Origin: a virus
Taxonomy: Duplodnaviria; Caudoviricetes
Virus record (IMG/VR): IMGVR_UViG_3300020044_003383
Coordinates: 1-29,979 of that record
Length of the DNA: 29,979 bases
Reading direction: 5' to 3' (one strand)
A model generated the notes under the pieces. That model made no database searches, was not told the origin of the DNA, and worked only from the letters and a program-made list of their open reading frames with translations. Every line of letters begins with the position of its first letter. Position 1 is the stretch's first letter. Of this stretch, positions 716-28,683 are shown one piece after another. The translations under genes and the position numbers were made by a program.

Positions 716-1198
716 ATGTATAGGTCAATCGTTTTTTATATTATGGAAAACATAAAACTTTTAAAAGACATTACAACAATTACTGGAATCGATATAAGTA
801 AACCATCACGAAGACGTGAAATTGTAGAAATCAAAGCGATTTTTTGTAATATTTTAAGACAACAAAATTTTACTTTACAAAGTATTGGCGACACAATAAA
901 TATGAAACATTGTTCAATTTCGCACTTACTTAATTTGTATAAAATTATAAATCATTTGCCACATATTCGACGAATAGAAAATAAAATAAAACTATTGAAT
1001 GAAGGATTTGATTTTAAATTTTTAGAATATCAAAATAAAATTGACGAATTGAAACTTGAAAACGATGAATTGAAACAAAAAATAAATTTAAAAAACAATG
1101 ATTTTTTTGAAAAACTTTTTATTTTAGCAAATGACAATCAATTCATTTATGACAAATTAGTTAGTTTTTACAATATTAATTCAAAACTAAAATTTTAA
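716..1198 (+). CDS. DnaA C-terminal (domain IV)-like HTH DNA-binding protein with coiled-coil tail; start may be 743
   Basis: ISKPSRRREIVEIKAIFCNILRQQNFTLQSIGDTINMKHCSISH follows the DnaA domain IV pattern (S..R...I...R.I..Y..R.....L..IG......H..V.H). Confidence 0.65.
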   Translation: MYRSIVFYIMENIKLLKDITTITGIDISKPSRRREIVEIKAIFCNILRQQNFTLQSIGDTINMKHCSISHLLNLYKIINHLPHIRRIENKIKLLNEGFDFKFLEYQNKIDELKLENDELKQKINLKNNDFFEKLFILANDNQFIYDKLVSFYNINSKLKF

Positions 1199-1395: not shown

Positions 1396-1501
1396 CATTC
1401 AGCAAATGTCTAATTTTTATGAATGGCTTTTAAAAGTCAAAAATGTATATTTGCACGACAACAATAAAATTGACAAAGCATTTCAACGTGTAATACAATG
1501 A
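1355..1501 (+). CDS. Small hypothetical protein (ATG at 1355 or 1406; ORF track 1250-1501)
   Basis: Fills the gap before the primase leader; start uncertain. Confidence 0.4.
   Translation: MKSNILNQSKKKSDIQQMSNFYEWLLKVKNVYLHDNNKIDKAFQRVIQ
1446..1453 (+). promoter_or_regulatory. Bacteroidota sigma-A -7 element TATATTTG upstream of the primase-helicase
   Basis: Exact TAnnTTTG match about 150 bp before ATG 1602; the -33 element is poor. Confidence 0.45.
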
Positions 1502-1585
1502 CGCAAAATTCTTATTAACGAACCACAACGAAAATAAAACGACACGACACAAATTTTTTTGACTTTTTTGCGTCTTTGCGTCTAA
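1499..1585. promoter_or_regulatory. Operator-like module in the primase leader (TGACGCAA ... CTTATTAAC ... TTTTGCGTCTTTGCGTCTAA)
   Basis: 1566-1585 is identical over 20 nt to 10048-10067; the other two motifs occur in the same order at 9974-10001. Confidence 0.7.
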
Positions 1586-7439: not shown

Positions 7440-7653
7440 TAGTATTATTAATGAAGACGGTTCTGTCAATCAAAAAATTTTTGAAATCGAAGGACTCAAA
7501 CTTGAATTTGTTGCAACCGAAGAAGGTATTTCATACAAAGCAATCGATGCAATTGATACAATCTTGAATCATAACACTGGCAAAAAAACAAAATGGCATA
7601 GACTTAAATTAAAACAATTTTATGATTCTCGATATATTAGCAAAACGGCATAA
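7432..7653 (+). CDS. Hypothetical protein
   Basis: 73-aa ORF overlapping both neighbours. Confidence 0.6.
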   Translation: MNSSIINEDGSVNQKIFEIEGLKLEFVATEEGISYKAIDAIDTILNHNTGKKTKWHRLKLKQFYDSRYISKTA

Positions 7654-8101
7654 TGAATGGATCAAACTTGCAAACAAAATTTGCAAGAATCCAGAACGTT
7701 CAAAAGACTTGGTTCAAGATATGTATATTCGAATCTATAATTCGGGGAAATCAATCGACCAAATAAATGAATGTTATATTTATTTCATTATGCGAAATCA
7801 GTTTTATAACGAAATCAAAAAAGAAAAAGAAACCATTTTATTAGATGACTTTTCAAACATCGAAATATTTGCTGAAGACTACGACAAACAAAAAGACGAA
7901 ATACTTTCAATTTTAGAAAAAGAACGTCAAAAATTATCTTGGTACGAAAAACAAATAATTGATTTAACAACCGAATTTGGACAACGTGAACTTTCACGTC
8001 AAACTGGAATCCATATTCAAACAATACACAACACAACAAAAAAAATTAAAAACAAATTATGGCAAAGCGTAGAAAAAAAATCGAAGGACTTGGGGACATA
8101 G
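7622..8101 (+). CDS. ECF-type RNA polymerase sigma factor (probable late sigma)
   Basis: Region 2 SKDLVQDMYIRI...YIYFIMRN; region 4 HTH QRELSRQTGIHIQTIHNT; sits directly before the packaging genes. Confidence 0.8.
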   Translation: MILDILAKRHNEWIKLANKICKNPERSKDLVQDMYIRIYNSGKSIDQINECYIYFIMRNQFYNEIKKEKETILLDDFSNIEIFAEDYDKQKDEILSILEKERQKLSWYEKQIIDLTTEFGQRELSRQTGIHIQTIHNTTKKIKNKLWQSVEKKSKDLGT

Positions 8102-8433
8102 TCGAACAAGTAACAAAAGCAACTGGAATCAAAAAAGTAATTGGCGATTGTGAAGGGTGCGAACAAAGAAAATTCTTGTTGAATAGAATATTTCCATTCA
8201 AGCGAGTAAACAAAATTATGACAGACGAACACAAAGCACAATTTGAAGTGTTCTTGTCTGAATGCGGAAATCGTGTTTTAGAAAATCGTATTACAGACAT
8301 CACAAATCACGTTCCGTTTTTAAATGAATTGTACAAAGAATATTTCGGAATTACAATCGAAGTGTGCGAATCGTGTTCAAACATTCACAAAGCAATCATT
8401 CGTGATTTGAATAAATTATTTCAAAATTCGTAA
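8059..8433 (+). CDS. Hypothetical protein with two CxxC motifs (probable Zn binding)
   Basis: GLGDIVEQVTKATGI...CEGC...CESC; overlaps the sigma gene. Confidence 0.7.
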   Translation: MAKRRKKIEGLGDIVEQVTKATGIKKVIGDCEGCEQRKFLLNRIFPFKRVNKIMTDEHKAQFEVFLSECGNRVLENRITDITNHVPFLNELYKEYFGITIEVCESCSNIHKAIIRDLNKLFQNS

Positions 8434-8454: not shown

Positions 8455-8790
8455 ATGTTACAAGAAGAACAAGAAATTCAAAGCGGAAAAGGTATAAAAG
8501 GATTCCAAAAAGGACACAAAGGTTTCAAGCCAAAAGGTGTAACACACGCAATGACAATTGAAGCAAGGGAACTTTTTATCTTGACACTTGAATCGCAAGT
8601 TCCAAACATACAACAAGCATTTGCCGATGTACTCGAAAAAGATCCAGCGAAATACTTGGATTTGTTTTCGAAATACGCGCAATATTTCATTCCGAAAAAA
8701 GTTGAATCCGAAGTCAACTTCAACATTGAAAAACCAATCTTTAAACAATTAGAACTCGATGTCATTTCAAACGACGACAGCACAAAGTAA
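8455..8790 (+). CDS. terS: Terminase small subunit (putative)
   Basis: GFQKGHKGFKPKG N-terminal motif; directly upstream of and overlapping TerL. Confidence 0.6.
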   Translation: MLQEEQEIQSGKGIKGFQKGHKGFKPKGVTHAMTIEARELFILTLESQVPNIQQAFADVLEKDPAKYLDLFSKYAQYFIPKKVESEVNFNIEKPIFKQLELDVISNDDSTK

Positions 8791-9922
8791 AATTGCCAGA
8801 TTAAGAAAACGGATTCGAATTGTTCAAGGCGGAACTTCGTCTTCGAAAACTTTTTCGATTATACCTTTGTTAATTTCGTATGCGATTGAAAATCCAATGT
8901 CGGAAATTTCAATCGTGTCGGAATCAATTCCGCATTTAAAACGTGGTGCAATAAAAGACTTTCAAAAGATTATGATTCTTTGCGATTTGTACAAAGATTC
9001 GCAATTCAATAAGTCAGATTTAAAGTATCGTTTCAAGAATGGTTCCTACATTGAATTTTTTAGTGTGGATCAACCAGACAAATTGCGAGGTGCAAGACGT
9101 GATATTCTATTCGTAAACGAATGCAACAACATCGACTTTGAATCATACCAGCAATTGTCAGTTCGTACAAAGAAATTTATTTATTTAGATTACAATCCAA
9201 CAAACGAATTTTGGGTGCATACTGAATTAATGAATGACATCGATACAGACTTCGTTGTTTTGACTTACAAGGACAATGAAGCGCTTGACAACGCAATTGT
9301 CAAAGAAATTGAAAAGGCACGGGAAAAAGCAAAGACGTCATCGTATTGGGAAAACTGGTGGAAAGTTTACGGACTTGGACAACTTGGTTCGCTTGAAGGT
9401 GTCATCTTTAATAATTGGCAAATCATTGACAACATTCCAACTGAAGCAACTTTACTTGGGTTCGGTCTTGACTTTGGTTTTTCAAACGATCCATCGTCTT
9501 TGATTGCGGTGTTTCAATGGAATGATAAAATCATTTGCGATGAACGAATCTATGCAACGGGTTTACTCAATACAGACATTATTCGATTAATGAACCAGGA
9601 CAAGCGACTTCCTATTTGGGCGGATTCAGCAGAACCAAAATCAATTGAAGAAATTCGACGTGCTGGTTTCAATATCAAGTCAGTTGAAAAAGGAAAAGAT
9701 TCAATCGTGTACGGAATTAGCGTTTTGCAAGACAAAGACATTCTTGTTACAAAGTCAAGTGTCAATCTTATAAAAGAATTACGTTCGTATTCTTGGGACA
9801 CTGACAAAGCCGGAAAGAAATTGAACAAACCAATTGACGATTTCAATCACGCAATTGACGCTTTGCGATATTTCGCAATGATGCACTTCAAGAATAGCAA
9901 TCGACGTTTCAAAATCACTTAA
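8759..9922 (+). CDS. terL: Terminase large subunit (PBSX/SPP1-like, headful type)
   Basis: Walker A QGGTSSSKT, Walker B LFVNE, coupling motif DYNP, nuclease GLDFG...DSAEP...NHAIDALRY. Confidence 0.95.
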   Translation: MSFQTTTAQSKIARLRKRIRIVQGGTSSSKTFSIIPLLISYAIENPMSEISIVSESIPHLKRGAIKDFQKIMILCDLYKDSQFNKSDLKYRFKNGSYIEFFSVDQPDKLRGARRDILFVNECNNIDFESYQQLSVRTKKFIYLDYNPTNEFWVHTELMNDIDTDFVVLTYKDNEALDNAIVKEIEKAREKAKTSSYWENWWKVYGLGQLGSLEGVIFNNWQIIDNIPTEATLLGFGLDFGFSNDPSSLIAVFQWNDKIICDERIYATGLLNTDIIRLMNQDKRLPIWADSAEPKSIEEIRRAGFNIKSVEKGKDSIVYGISVLQDKDILVTKSSVNLIKELRSYSWDTDKAGKKLNKPIDDFNHAIDALRYFAMMHFKNSNRRFKIT

Positions 9923-9928
9923 TAAATT

Positions 9929-9954
9929 GCAACCTTAATCGGTTGCTTTTTTTT
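9929..9954 (+). terminator. Rho-independent terminator after terL
   Basis: GCAACC-TTAATC-GGTTGC followed by T8. Confidence 0.85.
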
Positions 9955-9959
9955 GTCCG

Positions 9960-10210
9960 TGACGCAAAGACGATGACGCAAGACAGAAATCCCTTATTAA
10001 CCATTTACTATAAGAACTTTTTTGATGCCCTCACGAAAAAGTTGAAATTTTGCGTCTTTGCGTCTAAGTCAATTTAACTTATTTTAAAGAACTCAATAAT
10101 ACCAACGTTTGACAAAGATAAATAATATAAAAACAATTAGACGATGACGTTTCATTTGCGTCTGTTATCAACAATTTGCGTCTTTTATTAACACGTTTGC
10201 GTCTTTTTTT
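9960..10210. repeat. Iteron-like array (GACGCAA / TTTGCGTCT), putative replication origin
   Basis: GACGCAA at 9961 and 9975; TTTGCGTCT at 10049, 10057, 10155, 10175 and 10196; followed by a very AT-rich tract; largest non-coding region in the genome. Confidence 0.7.
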
Positions 10211-10276
10211 TATACTATTTTAAAGATTTGGTCGAATAATCAATAAAATAATAAGTAATAGTATAAAGATATAATG

Positions 10277-10301
10277 CTTATTTAGAATGATTCTAAATAA
10301 G
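10277..10301. promoter_or_regulatory. Perfect 12-1-12 palindrome CTTATTTAGAAT-G-ATTCTAAATAAG (Fur-box-like operator)
   Basis: Palindrome seen directly; a second degenerate copy lies at 28371-28392. Confidence 0.7.
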
Positions 10302-10340
10302 GAATTGATTAAATTCAAATTTTAGAACAAAACATTTCAA

Positions 10341-10370
10341 AACAATATTGGTTTTATTTGTTATATTAAT
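10341..10370 (+). promoter_or_regulatory. Putative late promoter 1 (WACAA-N15-TTAT-N6-ATG)
   Basis: Same motif and spacing before ATGs 17659 and 20379. Confidence 0.6.
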
Positions 10371-11063
10371 ATGAGAATCACGATACCAACACAATTAAGC
10401 GAAATCACCTTGAATCAATATTTAAGGTTTTCGAAAACGTTGCAAGACAATCCAGACGATGAAACATTTGTTGCAATTCAGATGGTGTCAATATTTTGCA
10501 ATTTGAACATTGAACAAGTTATGCAAATACCAGTGTATGACTTTGAAGAAATTATTGAACAATTGTCAAAAGTGTTGCAAGACAAACCGACACTTGTCAG
10601 ACAATTCAAATTGAATGGTGTGAAATATGGATTCGTTCCAAACTTAGACGAAGAATCAATCGGAACGTTTTCATATATTGACACGTTAATTGGAAACGAA
10701 GACAACTGGACAAAGTTAATGTCGGCAATGTACAGACCAATAACAAAGTCGTTTGGTAATATGTACGAAATTGAAAAGTTTCAAGGCGACAAGTTCGCTG
10801 AAGAATTTGCCAATATAAAAATGGATTGCGTAATCGGTTCGCTGGTTTTTTTTTGGAGTTTAAAAATAGAATTATTGAACAATATTCTCGACTATTCAAC
10901 AAAGATTCTAACGACGACGGACAATTTGGAAGTGGCGGATCTTTTCAAGAAGTCTGGGGTTGGTACCATTCAATTGTCAAAATTGCAAGAGGAAATATAT
11001 TTGACATTGAACGAGCAGAATCAACAAACATCCATAATGCGCTTACCTTCCTTTTGTATTTAA
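10371..11063 (+). CDS. Putative tail assembly chaperone (0-frame product)
   Basis: First gene of the tail operon; contains a T9 slippery run at 10846-10854 leading into an overlapping -1 frame ORF. Confidence 0.55.
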   Translation: MRITIPTQLSEITLNQYLRFSKTLQDNPDDETFVAIQMVSIFCNLNIEQVMQIPVYDFEEIIEQLSKVLQDKPTLVRQFKLNGVKYGFVPNLDEESIGTFSYIDTLIGNEDNWTKLMSAMYRPITKSFGNMYEIEKFQGDKFAEEFANIKMDCVIGSLVFFWSLKIELLNNILDYSTKILTTTDNLEVADLFKKSGVGTIQLSKLQEEIYLTLNEQNQQTSIMRLPSFCI

Positions 11064-11116
11064 AAGAATCGGAAATTGAAGAAGCAAAAAGAATAAAATC
11101 AAATTTTGAAAAATGA
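10853..11116 (+). CDS. -1 frameshift extension of 10371 (G-T-like product, about 248 aa in total)
   Basis: The -1 frame is open from the T9 run to a stop that overlaps the next ATG (ATGA 11113-11116); it has no ATG start of its own. Confidence 0.7.
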   Translation: MEFKNRIIEQYSRLFNKDSNDDGQFGSGGSFQEVWGWYHSIVKIARGNIFDIERAESTNIHNALTFLLYLKESEIEEAKRIKSNFEK

Positions 11117-11565
11117 AAGAATTTTACGACGTAGTCGCTTACTTAAAACAATTGCTTGAATCAAATCCTTTGGTTCACACAATCACGCACGGAACACCAG
11201 ACTTAATCGATATTGATAAAAAAAATATCTATCCATTGGCGCACTTAAACGTAATTTCTTCAAGTGTTCAACCTGGTGTGGTTGTATTTAGTTTTGAGGT
11301 TACAATATTAGATATTAGAAACGTTTCAAAAGTTCAAGTTCAAGACAAGTTTCTTGGTAATGACAACGAACTTGACAATCTTAATACGTGCCACGCAATT
11401 TTGAATTATGTAGTTACAAAAATGAAATTACAAAACAACGATTTTGATATTGAACTATTGAACGAACCACAATTCGAACCGATGCTTTTAAAATTTTCAA
11501 ATCAACTTGACGGCTGGAGAACGACTTTAGATTTGGCGATTGCTAACAATGTTTTTGTTTGTTAA
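11113..11565 (+). CDS. Putative tail terminator/completion protein
   Basis: 150 aa with IYPLAHL and terminal LDGWRTTLDL strands; size and position fit a tail terminator. Confidence 0.5.
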   Translation: MKEFYDVVAYLKQLLESNPLVHTITHGTPDLIDIDKKNIYPLAHLNVISSSVQPGVVVFSFEVTILDIRNVSKVQVQDKFLGNDNELDNLNTCHAILNYVVTKMKLQNNDFDIELLNEPQFEPMLLKFSNQLDGWRTTLDLAIANNVFVC

Positions 11566-11569
11566 AAAG

Positions 11570-12094
11570 ATGGAACAAAAAGAAGTCAAAAAAACGTTTG
11601 AAGAATTTGGAAATTACGTAATTGAAAAAGCGAAATCGAATTTAAAAAAAGACGGAAAAAATGCGTCTGGCAAATTATATGATTCGTTAGATTTTGAATT
11701 TAAACAAAATCAAAATTCAATTGAATTTGATTTCTTTGCTGAAGACTATTGGACATTTGTTGATAAGGGTGTAAAAGGAAAAACGAGTTCAGCAAAAGCA
11801 CCAAATTCGCCATATCAATTTGGAAGTGGAACTGGAAAAAAAGGCGGACTTCGTGCATCGATTGACAAGTGGGTAATTCGAAAAGGATTGACAAATACAA
11901 GAAACGAAAAAGGTCAATTCATAAATCGTAAACAAATGGTGTCAATGATTTCGTCAGCGATTTACAATCGAGGTTTGGAAACAACTGAATTTTTTAGCAA
12001 ACCATTTGAAGAAGCGTTTAAAACATTACCAGATGAAATTCTTGAAGCATACGGACAAGACTTAAATAAATTTTTAATAAAAGAATTACAATAA
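11570..12094 (+). CDS. Putative neck/tail completion protein
   Basis: Basic protein with ASGKLYDSL...YWTFVDKG...FFSKPFE pattern; ATG 11570 preferred over TTG 11540. Confidence 0.55.
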   Translation: MEQKEVKKTFEEFGNYVIEKAKSNLKKDGKNASGKLYDSLDFEFKQNQNSIEFDFFAEDYWTFVDKGVKGKTSSAKAPNSPYQFGSGTGKKGGLRASIDKWVIRKGLTNTRNEKGQFINRKQMVSMISSAIYNRGLETTEFFSKPFEEAFKTLPDEILEAYGQDLNKFLIKELQ

Positions 12095-13122
12095 TGAAAA
12101 AAATATTTGTGCGTTCACCTTACACAATAGCAATTAATGAAGTTGGACAAATTGGATCAAAAGTTGAATTGTTTATTTGGAACGCAAATATTTCCGAACC
12201 AACAACACCGACTTATACAATGTCGAAAAAAATTGTTTCAGAAACGCAAACAGAAAACGTTTACAATATTTCAAACAAATGCGTTGAATTTATAAACGAA
12301 AAGAATCCGATTTATACTTCAATTGTAGCAACTGAATCTTTTAAAAACTGGTGCTTTGCAAAAGTAAAAAGATACAAAGAAACTTCGTCAAATGTTTTTG
12401 TTTTAATTGACGAAGAAACATTCATTTGTTTTGATGGTTACACTTCATTTTTGGCTGGTGCAAATCAAGATGAAACAACAGACAATGTTCCATTGTTTAA
12501 TACAGATATTAAAATTTATAAACAAGAAGGCACAACTGAATATGTAAATGTGTGGCTTGATGAAAGTCCGAACTGGTATTTTGAAGACGCAACGGAAACT
12601 TTGTTTCAAATTGAAAGTATTGGTTCGCTTTACAAAATACCTTATTCAGTAAATGGAACTTATAAAATTTTAAAATTGGGTGCTACTTTAAGGGAAAAAT
12701 TCAGATTTAAAGTTGAATCTATTTGCGAGGCGAAATATACACCGATTGTTTGTTCGTTTATTAATCGTTTTGGCGGTTGGTCGTTCTTGACATTTTTCAA
12801 AGCGCATCAAAAATCAATCGAAGTTAAATCGTCGACATTTAATTTGATGCCCGAATCTTGGAACTATGATACATTTGTCGGTTCGAATAAACAATTCAAT
12901 TTCAACGGAACAAGAAAAATCACTTGCAACACTGGCTGGGTTGATGAAAATTATTCTGAATTGATTCAAGACTTACTTGTTTCACAAGTCATATTGCTTG
13001 ACGACATTCCAGTTGTTTGTAAATCAACTTCGAATGAAGAAAAAACGCAATTGAAAGATAAGAATATTAATTACACAATAAATTTTGAATACAATTTCAA
13101 TCTTTTAAACGACGTGATTTAA
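12094..13122 (+). CDS. Tail structural protein (distal-tail-like)
   Basis: Beta-rich 342 aa with FINRFGGW and NTGWVDE motifs; translationally coupled within the tail operon. Confidence 0.5.
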   Translation: MKKIFVRSPYTIAINEVGQIGSKVELFIWNANISEPTTPTYTMSKKIVSETQTENVYNISNKCVEFINEKNPIYTSIVATESFKNWCFAKVKRYKETSSNVFVLIDEETFICFDGYTSFLAGANQDETTDNVPLFNTDIKIYKQEGTTEYVNVWLDESPNWYFEDATETLFQIESIGSLYKIPYSVNGTYKILKLGATLREKFRFKVESICEAKYTPIVCSFINRFGGWSFLTFFKAHQKSIEVKSSTFNLMPESWNYDTFVGSNKQFNFNGTRKITCNTGWVDENYSELIQDLLVSQVILLDDIPVVCKSTSNEEKTQLKDKNINYTINFEYNFNLLNDVI

Positions 13123-15428: not shown

Positions 15429-15564
15429 TTTACAACAATTACTGAAATTGGCACAAGATTTTGAACAAAACGAAATCATTGCAAGTGCAAAGGGGAAATA
15501 TCAATTTCCAAAAACATTAAAAGAAATAATTAAAAAAGCAAGACAATGGCAATTGAAAAAGTAA
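15421..15564 (+). CDS. Small protein, 47 aa, upstream of the tape measure gene (not in ORF track)
   Basis: MDNLQQLLKLAQDFEQNEIIASAKGKYQFPKTLKEIIKKARQWQLKK; overlaps both neighbours and fills the gap exactly. Confidence 0.65.
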   Translation: MDNLQQLLKLAQDFEQNEIIASAKGKYQFPKTLKEIIKKARQWQLKK

Positions 15565-17620
15565 TTGACGTAAAAATACAAAGCGAACAAGCCGAAGGGG
15601 CGGTCAAATCTTTAAAGCAACAATTTCGTGAGGCACAAAACGAAGTAAATGAATTGAGCGCAAAATTTGGTGCGACATCACAAGAAGCGGTCAATGCCGC
15701 AAAAAAAGCGTCTGAATTAAAAGACGCAATCGGTGATGCCAAATCTTTGACAGACGCATTCAATCCAGATGCGAAGTTTAAATCTTTGACGTCTTCATTG
15801 TCTGGTGTTGCTGGTGGATTTTCAGCGGTTCAAGGTGCAATGGGGCTTGTTGGCGCTCAATCTGAAGACGTTGAAAAAACACTTTTAAAAGTTCAAAGCG
15901 CAATGGCATTATCAACTGGGTTACAACAACTTGGTGAAAGTGCCGACGCATTCAAACAATTGAAAGCGGTTGCAATAAATGCTTTCAACGGAATCAAAGC
16001 CGCAATCGGTTCTACTGGTATTGGTTTACTTGTTATCGCATTAGGTGCTATTTACACATATTGGGATGACATCAAAGAAGCGGTTTCTGGTGTGTCTGAA
16101 GAACAAAAACAATTGAACGCATTAAGTCAAAAAAATCTTGATTCTGAAAAAGGAAAACTTGACGCAATCGGAAGTCAAGACAATGTTTTGAAATTACAAG
16201 GAAAATCTGAAAAACAGATTTTGCAAATGAAAATTGCACAAACGGACCAAACAATTAAGGCTGGTGAAATCAATATTCAAAATCAAATTGTTTCAAACAA
16301 ATTAGCACTTGAAGCCGAAAAAAGAAATTACAAATTATTGAAATCTTATCTTGACGCAATTTCAATTCCTTTGAATTTTTATACAAAGCTGGTGCAAAAG
16401 CAATAAATGGGATAATTGATTTGATGAATAAAATTCCAGGTGTTGAAATTGAAACAAAACTTGATACAAAACTTGTTGAAAAATCCGCTGACTGGTTGGC
16501 GAAACTTGCATTCGATCCAAAGAAAACTGAAGAAGACGGAAAAAAACAAGTTGAAGAACAACAAAAATATTTGGCTAAATTAAAAAATGACAAGGCTGGT
16601 TTGCAATTACAAATAAACGGAATTGACAAAAAAGCATCTGAAGACTCACAAAAAAGACAAGAAGAAAAAAACAAAAAAGATGAAGAAGCACGTCAAAAAG
16701 AAAAAGACGAACTTCAAAAACAAAAAGACGCATTAAAATCTATTGAAGAAAAAGCGTCAAAAGAACTTGAAGACTTAAAAGCGAAAACGGATCGTGAAAA
16801 ATTAGAGTTACAAAAGAAACGTGATTTGGAAGAACTTGACAATATTAAATTGTCTGAAGAAGAAAAAGCAAAAGCACGTTTTGACATTTTAGAAAAGTAC
16901 AGAATAAAAAGCGAAGAACTTGACGCGATTGAAGCGGAAAAGAAAACGACAAAAGAAATTGAAGACAAGCAAAAAGAATTAGAAGACCAGACACTTACTT
17001 TTGAAGAACGTCGTGCAATTCTTGATGAACAAAACGCAATCATAACTGAAGGCGATTTTAAGACTGAAGAAGAACGAACAAAAGCAAAAGATGCGAATGT
17101 AAAAGCAAGAATTGAGCTTGACAAATTAGAAGGAAAAGCAAAGATTGACGCACTTGACGCCGTTTCTCAAACTTTGAATGGTGCATCTGAATTACTTGGA
17201 AAAGAAACTGCGGCTGGAAAAGCAATGTCCGTTGCAAGTGCAACAATTTCAACATTCTTATCAGCACAAAAAGCGTATGATGCGACAATTGGAATTCCTT
17301 ACGTTGGACCATTTCTTGCACCGGTGAATGCTGGACTTGCAATTGCATCTGGTATAAAAAACGTTAAGTCAATTTTATCTGTAAAAGTTCCAGGCGGTGG
17401 CGGTGGTGCTTCAGCGCCTTCGATTTCATCAAGTGCAACGGCTGGAGTTACTTCAGCACCGAATTTTAATGTTGTCGGAAACGCTGGAACAAATCAATTG
17501 GCGTCAAGTTTAGGCAACGCAATGCAACAAAATCCAATACAAGCGTATGTTGTTTCTGGTGCGGTTACAACTGCTCAATCGTTAGACAGAAACATCATTT
17601 CAAATGCATCACTTGGATAA
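15546..17620 (+). CDS. Tail tape measure protein, interrupted by a -1 frame change near 16376-16380 (ORFs 15546-16406 and 16421-17620)
   Basis: Ala/Gly-rich helical and hydrophobic segments plus a long coiled coil; adding one T to the T5 run gives a continuous 691-aa reading (...PLNFLYKAGAKAINGIIDLMNKIPGV...). Confidence 0.8.
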
Positions 17621-17628
17621 AAGTTTAT

Positions 17629-17658
17629 AACAAAATAACAAATTTTAATTATTATTAT
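17629..17658 (+). promoter_or_regulatory. Putative late promoter 2
   Basis: AACAA at -30 and TTAT at -10 relative to ATG 17659. Confidence 0.55.
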
Positions 17659-27243: not shown

Positions 27244-28365
27244 ATGGATTCAAAAATCTACTACAATGACATTGATTTTAGTTTAAATCACATTGATAAT
27301 TTAAATTTAATTGTAAAAAAACACGATTTAAAATTGTCGAGTACTGAAAAAGACACTTTGCGTTTTTACATTCGAAGACAAATCAATTCAAAAGGTATTA
27401 TTGAAGCGTGTCAAAACGTTGGAGTTGATCCAACAACTGCGCCAATGTTATGGTTGAAGACAAAAACGGAATCTGTTCGTGTTACAAACCCGTTATTTGA
27501 AAAACCCGAAGAAAAAGAATTTAAACAATTAGCCGATGCGTTGATTGAAGACTTGCAAAAATTCACACCTATATTTCCAGTATTTGAAAGGTCGTATATT
27601 AAAGACGGACATTGTCTTGTTTTAAGTCCAGCCGACATTCATATTGGAAAACTTTGCAACGAGTGGGAAACGGGCGAAAAATATAATCAAAACATTGCGG
27701 TTCAAAGAACTTTGGAAGGTGTCAAAGGTATTCTTGACAAATCTTCTGGTTTTAATATTGACAAAATTGTTTTTATTGGCGGAAATGACATTTTACACAT
27801 TGACAATCCAAAACGAACTACAACAAGCGGAACACCGCAAGACACAGACGGAATGTGGTATGAAAATTTTATGATTGCAAAGCAATTATATGTCGATGTT
27901 TTAAAAATGTTGATACCAGTTGCAGACGTTCACTTTGTTTTCAATCCATCAAATCACGACTACACAAACGGATTTTTCCTGGCTCAAGTTATTCAATCAT
28001 ATTTCAAAGATTGTATCAATATAACGTTTGACGTGTCAATTTCGCATCGTAAATATTACAAATATTACGACAATCTTATTGGTTCTACTCACGGCGACGG
28101 CGCAAAATTAGAAAATTTACCTTTGCTTATGGCTTCAGAATCAAAAGACTGGACAAATTCAAAGCACCGATATATTTACACACACCACGTTCACCATAAA
28201 ATTGCAAAAGATTTTATCGGTTGCACGATTGAAAGTCTTCGTTCACCAAGTGGAACCGATTCTTGGCATCACCGAAACGGGTATCAACACGCACCAAAAG
28301 CGATTGAGGGATTTTTACACCATAAAAACTTCGGACAAATTGCCAGATTGACGCATATTTTTTAA
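27244..28365 (+). CDS. Calcineurin-like metallophosphoesterase
   Basis: DIHIG, GNDILH, SNHD, HGD and HHVHH metal-binding motifs in canonical order. Confidence 0.85.
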   Translation: MDSKIYYNDIDFSLNHIDNLNLIVKKHDLKLSSTEKDTLRFYIRRQINSKGIIEACQNVGVDPTTAPMLWLKTKTESVRVTNPLFEKPEEKEFKQLADALIEDLQKFTPIFPVFERSYIKDGHCLVLSPADIHIGKLCNEWETGEKYNQNIAVQRTLEGVKGILDKSSGFNIDKIVFIGGNDILHIDNPKRTTTSGTPQDTDGMWYENFMIAKQLYVDVLKMLIPVADVHFVFNPSNHDYTNGFFLAQVIQSYFKDCINITFDVSISHRKYYKYYDNLIGSTHGDGAKLENLPLLMASESKDWTNSKHRYIYTHHVHHKIAKDFIGCTIESLRSPSGTDSWHHRNGYQHAPKAIEGFLHHKNFGQIARLTHIF

Positions 28366-28370
28366 TTGTT

Positions 28371-28392
28371 CTTATTTAGAATCATTATAAAT
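28371..28392. promoter_or_regulatory. Second Fur-box-like palindrome CTTATTTAGAATCATTATAAAT
   Basis: Left arm CTTATTTAGAAT is identical to 10277-10288; the 19-bp core differs at two positions. Confidence 0.6.
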
Positions 28393-28425
28393 TATCGTTT
28401 TTTTTCATCTTTTTTAATAATTTAT

Positions 28426-28455
28426 TTTGTATTAATAAAAAACGTCTTATATTTG
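28426..28455 (+). promoter_or_regulatory. Early promoter, Bacteroidota sigma-A type (TTTG-N18-TATATTTG)
   Basis: Both consensus elements are present in the intergenic gap ahead of the small early genes. Confidence 0.75.
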
Positions 28456-28485: not shown

Positions 28486-28683
28486 ATGTTATCAAAATAA
28501 ATCGAAGAAAGAGCAATTATCTTAATACAAAACGGAGTTGAAGTATTAGAAGCGGTTAAATTAGCAATCATTGAAGAAAACAATTTTATTTCTGAAATGT
28601 TAGAGCAAACAACTGAAAGAAGTAAAAAAGCAAAAAATACAATTTGCAAAAATGTTTATGGTTTAATTCACATAAATTATTAA
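28486..28683 (+). pseudogene. First early gene, 65 codons, with in-frame TAA at codon 5
   Basis: ATG TTA TCA AAA TAA ATC GAA GAA AGA...; the frame stays open for 60 further codons, ending 2 nt before the next ATG. Confidence 0.7.

Follow-up and report, generated by a model that had tools for sequence, protein, structure and literature searches.

To our knowledge, the host iron sensors known to act on phage DNA do so at toxin cargo genes and by repression: the stx1 promoter of lambdoid prophages is repressed by Fur, and tox of corynephages is repressed by DtxR.

In Riemerella anatipestifer, the available passages of PMC5609570 (Results and Discussion) give the predicted Fur box as ATTTAGAATTATTCTAAAT, which is the sequence that the preliminary description of the present DNA had correctly given; the abstract of that paper prints another 19-mer, which its Discussion calls the general Fur consensus. 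The same passages mention -7/-33 promoter elements and report that promoter fragments of iron-uptake genes are shifted by Riemerella Fur in EMSA. Further sources on this regulator are PMC7976709, PMC10986502, PMC10434265, and PMC11967795. According to the passages available from the later Riemerella papers, rhuB has a near-identical box and is shifted by Fur in EMSA, and binding is Mn-dependent; feoAB is derepressed 4-5-fold in a fur mutant, and deletion of the Fur box derepresses rhuH. The passages of the five papers hold no footprint of Fur on these boxes, and they describe the box only at chromosomal iron-uptake genes and only as a site of repression. In Caulobacter crescentus, the activating Fur sites of sdhCDAB, nuoA-N, and acnA lie upstream of the promoter, with sdh and nuo activated about two-fold from sites upstream of -35, whereas sites that overlap the promoter repress uptake genes, including feoA (available passages of PMC2724300).

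The phage genome described here carries two boxes of the Riemerella type, with the same 9-1-9 sequence, in intergenic DNA and near -7/-33 promoters; unlike the Riemerella sites, they lie on a phage, one of them upstream of the core promoter and before early genes. The likeness to stx1 and tox is that a host iron regulator would have a site on phage DNA, but those sites repress cargo toxin genes, whereas the site here would serve the early programme of the phage itself, in which, unlike the stx1 and tox phages as described, no integrase or repressor was recognised. The Caulobacter arrangement is likened below to a split within Bacteroidota between sdhC/nqrA (upstream sites) and feoA (overlapping sites), although Caulobacter belongs to another phylum, uses another box sequence, and has the split at host genes only.

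Results

Two Fur-type boxes in a circular phage genome

The window, meaning the whole 29,979-nt stretch analysed, is a complete circular phage genome (~29.9 kb, 31% GC) with a 121-nt terminal overlap, in agreement with the earlier placement of both boxes on a circle. PHROGs and Pfam identify a terminase, portal, tape measure, tail fibre, endolysin, primase-helicase, methyltransferase, and sigma-factor-like gene. The window proteins scanned (39 PHROGs, 28 Pfam) gave no match to an integrase, a repressor, or Fur, in line with the earlier remark that the phage has no recognisable repressor. The terminase is closest to those of Flavobacterium psychrophilum phages (55% identity), and we infer that the host belongs to the Bacteroidota. 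Two DNA runs with the labels lake water and freshwater leave none of the 30 bins of positions 8500-12500 uncovered. The positions of the features discussed are collected in Table 1.

Table 1. Positions of boxes, predicted promoters, repeats, and selected genes in the window
Feature	Position	Strand	Basis and remarks
Copy 1, perfect 12-1-12 Fur-type box, CTTATTTAGAAT-G-ATTCTAAATAAG	10277..10301	.	Sequence; top site under three host-derived matrices
Copy 2, Fur-type box	28371..28394	+	Promoter-side half reads ATTATAAAT, like host sdhC and nqrA
Predicted early sigma-A promoter	28426..28455	+	-33 TTTG (28426-28429), 18-nt spacer, -7 TATATTTG (28448-28455); sequence and pattern scan
Terminator-like hairpin GCAACC-N6-GGTTGC with T run, after terL	9929..9954	+	Sequence
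Seven GACGCAA/TTGCGTC repeats (2 forward, 5 reverse), origin- or packaging-site-like	9961..10203	.	Function inferred
AT-rich stretch between repeat array and copy 1	10204..10276	.	Sequence
Predicted late promoter AACAA-N12-TTGTTATAT, likely read by phage sigma factor	10341..10366	+	Conserved in alignment; function inferred
Second late-type promoter, before protease and capsid genes, without box	17629..17658	+	
Second small cluster of the GACGCAA repeat, directly upstream of primase-helicase gene	1500..1583	.	
Weak DnaA C-terminal HTH protein	716..1198	+	PF08299 E 2e-04, below curated cut-off
Phage sigma-factor-like gene, candidate late sigma	7622..8101	+	PHROG 1740 E 3e-09; Sigma70_r2 E 7e-08
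Terminase large subunit (terL)	8759..9922	+	PHROGs; upstream of intergenic region
First structural-operon gene	10371..11063	+	PHROG 32199, unknown function; anchor for copy 1 relatives
Exonuclease-family gene	27244..28365	+	PHROG 704; stops 5 nt before copy 2; copy 2 anchor

Some gene features were recorded in passing. The first early ORF (28486-28683) has an in-frame TAA after four codons (ATG TTA TCA AAA TAA) at a position where a near-identical relative (L147) has TCA, either a nonsense variant or an assembly error. The tape-measure gene (15546-17620) is split into two ORFs of 286 and 399 aa, each with a match to tape-measure families, and a frameshift in the assembly may be the cause; a 96-aa ORF (10826-11116) overlaps the 3' end of the first structural-operon gene in another frame, as would be expected for a tail-chaperone frameshift pair.

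The 25-bp palindrome reported in the preliminary description is present and perfect, and it exceeds every other palindrome in the genome in length; the AACAA element of the predicted late promoter begins 40 nt past its end. The second copy, reported upstream of the early sigma-A promoter, is also found there, ending 31 nt before the -33 element and 53 nt before the -7 element. Its 23-mer (28372-28394) has two mismatches to the palindrome. Both copies fit the 9-1-9 inverted repeat ATTTAGAAT-N-ATTCTAAAT, with 0 and 1 mismatches, respectively, and they are the only sites in the genome within four mismatches of the 23-mer. The palindrome of copy 1, taken alone, is borderline against chance, with arms of at least 12 arising in 8 of 200 third-order Markov genomes, and it is not used as proof. 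The published 19-mer is matched with at most one mismatch at two sites in the window, whereas none of 300 fourth-order simulations contained even one, so that chance does not account for this match; with up to three mismatches allowed, two matches were reached in 4 of 100 shuffles.

The motif in bacterial genomes

The exact 21-mer is present at no fewer than 120 loci in bacterial genome contigs, with ~560 estimated. Among the 80 listed loci with full flanks, 68 come from Bacteroidota, Ignavibacteria, or Balneolaceae by title, and 41 adjoin iron, haem, Fe-S, metal, or peroxide genes by our own sorting of Pfam matches (TonB plug at 8, fur at 4, and FeoA, SufB, HmuY, imelysin, NqrA, cytochromes, and others); a further 25 have no Pfam match nearby. 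Each of five host genomes holds 8-11 sites of the pattern, against 0-1 for a reversed control, and these sites adjoin similar iron-type genes or fall inside prophages. Sites in Bacteroidota lie mostly at iron-uptake and iron-using genes, with some at SOD. In Firmicutes and Leptospiraceae, the identical motif also lies ahead of fur-family, peroxidase, and P-type ATPase genes, sites that would fit PerR boxes. A near-perfect box was noted ~300 nt upstream of the chromosomal dnaA gene of Dysgonomonas mossii (L310; G004:C2 335453).

Motif discovery by EM, applied to the regions upstream of 30 feoA genes in the genus of Flavobacterium sp. ALJ2, was left unseeded because circularity had to be avoided, and it recovered the motif in 27 of these regions. 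Under the resulting matrix, which derives from one gene family, the two phage boxes rank 1 and 2 in the phage genome (13.8 and 10.4 bits; best other site, 4.6), and under its symmetrised form they reach 20.1 and 15.8 bits, with the next site at 10.9; scoring against a host-derived Fur matrix, a check put forward in the preliminary description, thus places both boxes on top. A matrix from nqrA is circular, since its sites were picked by likeness to the phage box. The comparisons support the identification of the motif as a Bacteroidota Fur-family box, which is known already. The other three feoA regions (L341, L343, and L346) carry another palindrome, TTAGA-N4-TCTAA, in place of the Fur-type box, and this may be the site of a DtxR/MntR-type regulator.

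Phage and host sites differ at the central base, which is C or G at 108 of 122 viral sites but at only 44 of 120 bacterial sites, among the matches listed. GANTC methylation was considered as the cause of this bias and dropped, since the genome shows no depletion of GANTC (121 observed against 102 expected) and relatives differ at the centre of copy 2.

Conservation in related phages and spread of the boxes

The positional conservation that the preliminary description proposed to examine is found for both copies. Of 24 loci compared, all 18 with a first structural gene at least 68% identical keep copy 1 with at most one mismatch, one of these being nearly the same genome, and copy 1 is invariant across 10 aligned intergenic regions; all six relatives at 47-48% identity lack both copy 1 and the whole intergenic insert in which it lies. 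Copy 2 is kept in all 20 relatives counted whose exonuclease is at least 77% identical. These derive from 37 exonuclease loci, of which 21 reach that identity, with one that ends at the gene left uncounted; among the 16 distant loci, 4 have copy 2 and 12 do not. Exactly these two sites, and no others, are present in each of the four complete clade genomes; G049 and G050 carry one box and G048 none.

Across viral contigs, the perfect form is found in ~150 stretches and the copy-2 form in ~610, against 0 for the reversed control. Annotated phages with matches are mostly phages of Flavobacterium, Polaribacter, Prevotella, and Cellulophaga; a BLAST match in a muminvirus was ignored, as it lies inside a gene. 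In one phage (G025:C1 24096), a perfect box stands upstream of a TTGACA/TATAAT-type promoter, and because of this promoter type the phage may not infect Bacteroidota.

Copy 2 lies at a helically phased spacing from the predicted early promoter

Copy 2 lies wholly upstream of the predicted core promoter and does not overlap the polymerase footprint. Taking TAnnTTTG, the -7 consensus, as reference, the distance from the end of copy 2 to the -7 element is 53 nt in the window, and the same value recurs in 18 of 18 clade members whose DNA extends far enough, with two loci omitted as too short. One copy-2-type viral site was then taken from each of 64 sequence clusters, and TAnnTTTG was found within 80 nt downstream in 38 of them; searched in the other direction, it was found in 11 of 64. 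The phage spacings of 20-80 nt fall at 31-35, 42-45, 49, 53-55, and 63-64 nt and are helically phased (R = 0.82 at period 10.5, n = 32), with a nominal p of 4e-10 that overstates independence, the 64 clusters being partly related, and a window count of 30/32 for which the windows were chosen post hoc. The 53 nt of copy 2 fits the phage series 32-33, 42-45, and 53-55. In other Bacteroidota phages, perfect boxes are positioned 1-14 nt before the -7 element, over the promoter core, ahead of structural genes.

Host promoters fall into corresponding layouts. At feoA, the -7 element begins 30-31 nt before the end of the box in 25 of 27 loci (a count that omits the three loci with another motif), which places the box over the inferred start site. 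At sdhC, the -7 element follows the box by 34 nt in 12 of the 13 loci scoring at least 10 bits (26 examined, with four weak matches left out). At nqrA, a box precedes the -7 element by 32-55 nt in 16 of 30 loci and in none of 30 reversed controls, with spacings of 32, 36 (and a second -7 at 44), 41-44, and 53-55 nt; the other 14 loci have no box. On the side facing the promoter, most of the upstream host sites share the ending ATAAAT with copy 2. Because its upstream, phased spacing is like that of sdhC and nqrA, and because Caulobacter Fur sites split in the same way, copy 2 is likely to be an activation site for iron-loaded Fur. According to the available passage on Riemerella RNA-seq, sdh genes fall under iron restriction in the wild type and the fur mutant alike, with no mutant-versus-wild-type value given there; these data give no support for direct activation by Fur in that species. 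Activation by a Fur of Bacteroidota did not come up in our literature searches.

Copy 1 lies beside a repeat array

Copy 1 belongs to an insert that separates terL from the structural operon and contains the terminator, the seven repeats, the AT-rich stretch, copy 1 itself, and the late-type promoter. The repeat array is conserved; it is the densest repeat cluster in G016, G046, and G047, and relatives at 47% identity lack the GACGCAA array. Because the repeat recurs before the primase-helicase gene and the product of 716-1198 has a weak DnaA-HTH match, the array is likely to be an origin or packaging site, and 716-1198 is a candidate binder of the array rather than of the box. In one relative (G011:C1 23500-24100), a dense cluster of AGTTGGC repeats lies upstream of the primase-helicase gene.

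Control of the late operon by copy 1, as proposed in the preliminary description, is not borne out. In the window, 57 nt separate the box from the late -10-like element; the distances across relatives are 27, 32, 36, 37, 43, 44, 57, 88, 159, and 179 nt, with no phasing (R 0.38, p 0.32); moreover, the second late-type promoter has no box. With no fixed distance to the late promoter, and with the box travelling together with the array, late gating is not supported, and the association of copy 1 is with the origin-like intergenic insert, not with the late promoter. The distance from the last repeat to copy 1 is 63-64, 72-75, 104, or 108-109 nt among relatives; these lengths are suggestive, but phasing with the repeats is not significant over the four length classes (R 0.59, p 0.26). 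No conserved leftward sigma-A promoter from copy 1 was found across the intergenic alignment. RNA-library contigs of relatives from two studies cover terL and the structural genes and leave ~9700-10375 uncovered, a gap to which no weight is given because fast-diverging intergenic DNA may fail the 90% cut. Among relatives, four loci (L132, L133, L135, and L140) have an insert of 100-120 nt with short repeats of its own between the box and the late promoter, and in another (L126) copy 1 is tandemly duplicated, with the two boxes 61 nt apart.

Candidate phage-encoded binders

A six-frame search gave no PF01475 match to Fur in the phage, and a Fur-like gene scores above the cut-off in 1 of 46 phage records, a count that could miss very divergent regulators. 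Polaribacter phage Danklef_1 (L304, MT732458.1) encodes a Fur-like protein; its gene (44806-45234) lies directly before terS, and the match covers only the N-terminal part of the family profile; the same phage has three boxes (344, 7754, and 16014) over sigma-A promoters in the structural region. None of 15 candidate stretches in viral contigs was confirmed as a relative of this protein, and the main text of the Danklef/Freya paper contains neither "iron" nor "ferric", although its supplements may mention the Fur-like gene. The ORF 8059-8433 of the window, tried as a Fur-like protein, does not align with the Danklef protein and was rejected. In a prophage of Flavobacterium sp. ALJ2 (G001:C2 95805, 110698, and 136698), boxes precede the fibre-holin-lysin genes and the head genes, each followed after 12 nt by a -7 element, and a further box lies 5 nt before a repressor-like gene. 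The protein encoded by 716-1198, named in the preliminary description as an alternative binder, is not needed to explain the boxes: it has a homologue in only 7 of 36 box-bearing phage records, and a PDB search gave no meaningful match for it.

Discussion

We consider it somewhat more probable than otherwise that host Fur binds both boxes and that copy 2 would let iron-loaded Fur activate the first genes of the phage, as is predicted for host nqrA and sdhC. The binder of the two palindromes would be host Fur itself, and the position of copy 2 upstream of the early promoter would, by analogy with Caulobacter, lead to activation; from activation of the first genes it would follow that infection gets under way more quickly in cells with ample iron. 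The strongest Fur site is likely to be copy 1. Its role beside the repeat array is a best guess, held weakly: most likely it would load Fur there as an accessory factor, which is the weak step of the scheme. In a bolder version, which we regard as possible but doubtful, Fur would both activate the early promoter and license replication beside a repeat-array origin, so that iron is checked at two steps, and Bacteroidota phages would broadly have copied the layout of respiratory genes. What stands of the earlier suggestion that Fur couples early and late transcription is thus the part that concerns copy 2, in the geometry of activation rather than repression; the part that concerns late control by copy 1 finds no support.

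Binding of host Fur to both boxes as a repressor, such that iron starvation or peroxide stress would open the early and late genes, is unlikely in our estimate. Fur is known only as a repressor at this motif in Riemerella, in the passages available; repression also fits the perfect boxes over the promoter core of other Bacteroidota phages, and several relatives have 27-37 nt between copy 1 and the late -10-like element. Copy 2, however, ends clear of the core promoter, with a spacing and an asymmetric sequence like those of the iron-using sdhC and nqrA and unlike feoA; a steric block needs no strict phasing, and copy 1 can lie as far as 179 nt from the late promoter. We give a similarly low probability to another host protein, a PerR- or Zur-like paralogue or a redox regulator, that shares the motif and reads peroxide, another metal, or respiration. 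The five host genomes checked each encode two to six Fur-family matches, which would provide candidates, and the Firmicutes and Leptospiraceae loci, the differing central C/G bias of phages and hosts, and an sdh response to iron that is independent of Fur in the Riemerella passage all fit such a protein. Against it, the motif is found at feoA, TonB receptors, imelysin, and HmuY, and promoters of this kind are bound and controlled in Riemerella by Fur itself, according to the same literature; the TTAGA-N4-TCTAA palindrome at 3 of 30 feoA loci may in turn belong to a DtxR-type regulator.

Titration, also raised in the preliminary description, would have replicating phage DNA soak up Fur and derepress host iron uptake. 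Copy 1 would suit such a decoy, being perfect, probably of high affinity, free of any fixed promoter geometry, and duplicated in tandem in one relative, but the invariant 53-nt spacing and oriented phasing of copy 2 are neither needed nor predicted by it, so that titration is possible for copy 1 only. There are just two sites per genome, and Fur is abundant in model bacteria; we consider a decoy quite improbable. The chances are slimmer still that the boxes are operators of a phage-encoded protein, whether 716-1198, the sigma-like protein, or a phage Fur or repressor. Danklef_1, with its three boxes and its own Fur-like gene, and the ALJ2 prophage, with a box next to a repressor-like gene, would be examples of such an arrangement, but in the present phage no PF01475 match was found, the one above-threshold match among 46 records and the patchy occurrence of 716-1198 do not follow the boxes, 8059-8433 is unlike the Danklef protein, and the motif is frequent in host chromosomes away from prophages.

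The box itself is known, but our literature searches turned up no case in which it lies ahead of the early promoter of a phage with the geometry of an activator site. No paper on Fur boxes at Bacteroidota phage promoters came up in our searches, which covered main texts only and subscription journals thinly. The host comparison also predicts direct activation of sdh and nqr by Bacteroidota Fur, which we did not find in print. Such boxes are carried by the cultured phages Danklef_1 and laban6-1, so that tests are feasible.

One study reports that iron limitation slows some marine viruses and not others (10.1101/2024.07.22.604475), and an iron sensor at the level of the promoter makes this virus-to-virus difference in iron response testable. 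If true, activation of phage early genes by Fur would give iron a direct way of setting phage output in aquatic Bacteroidota.
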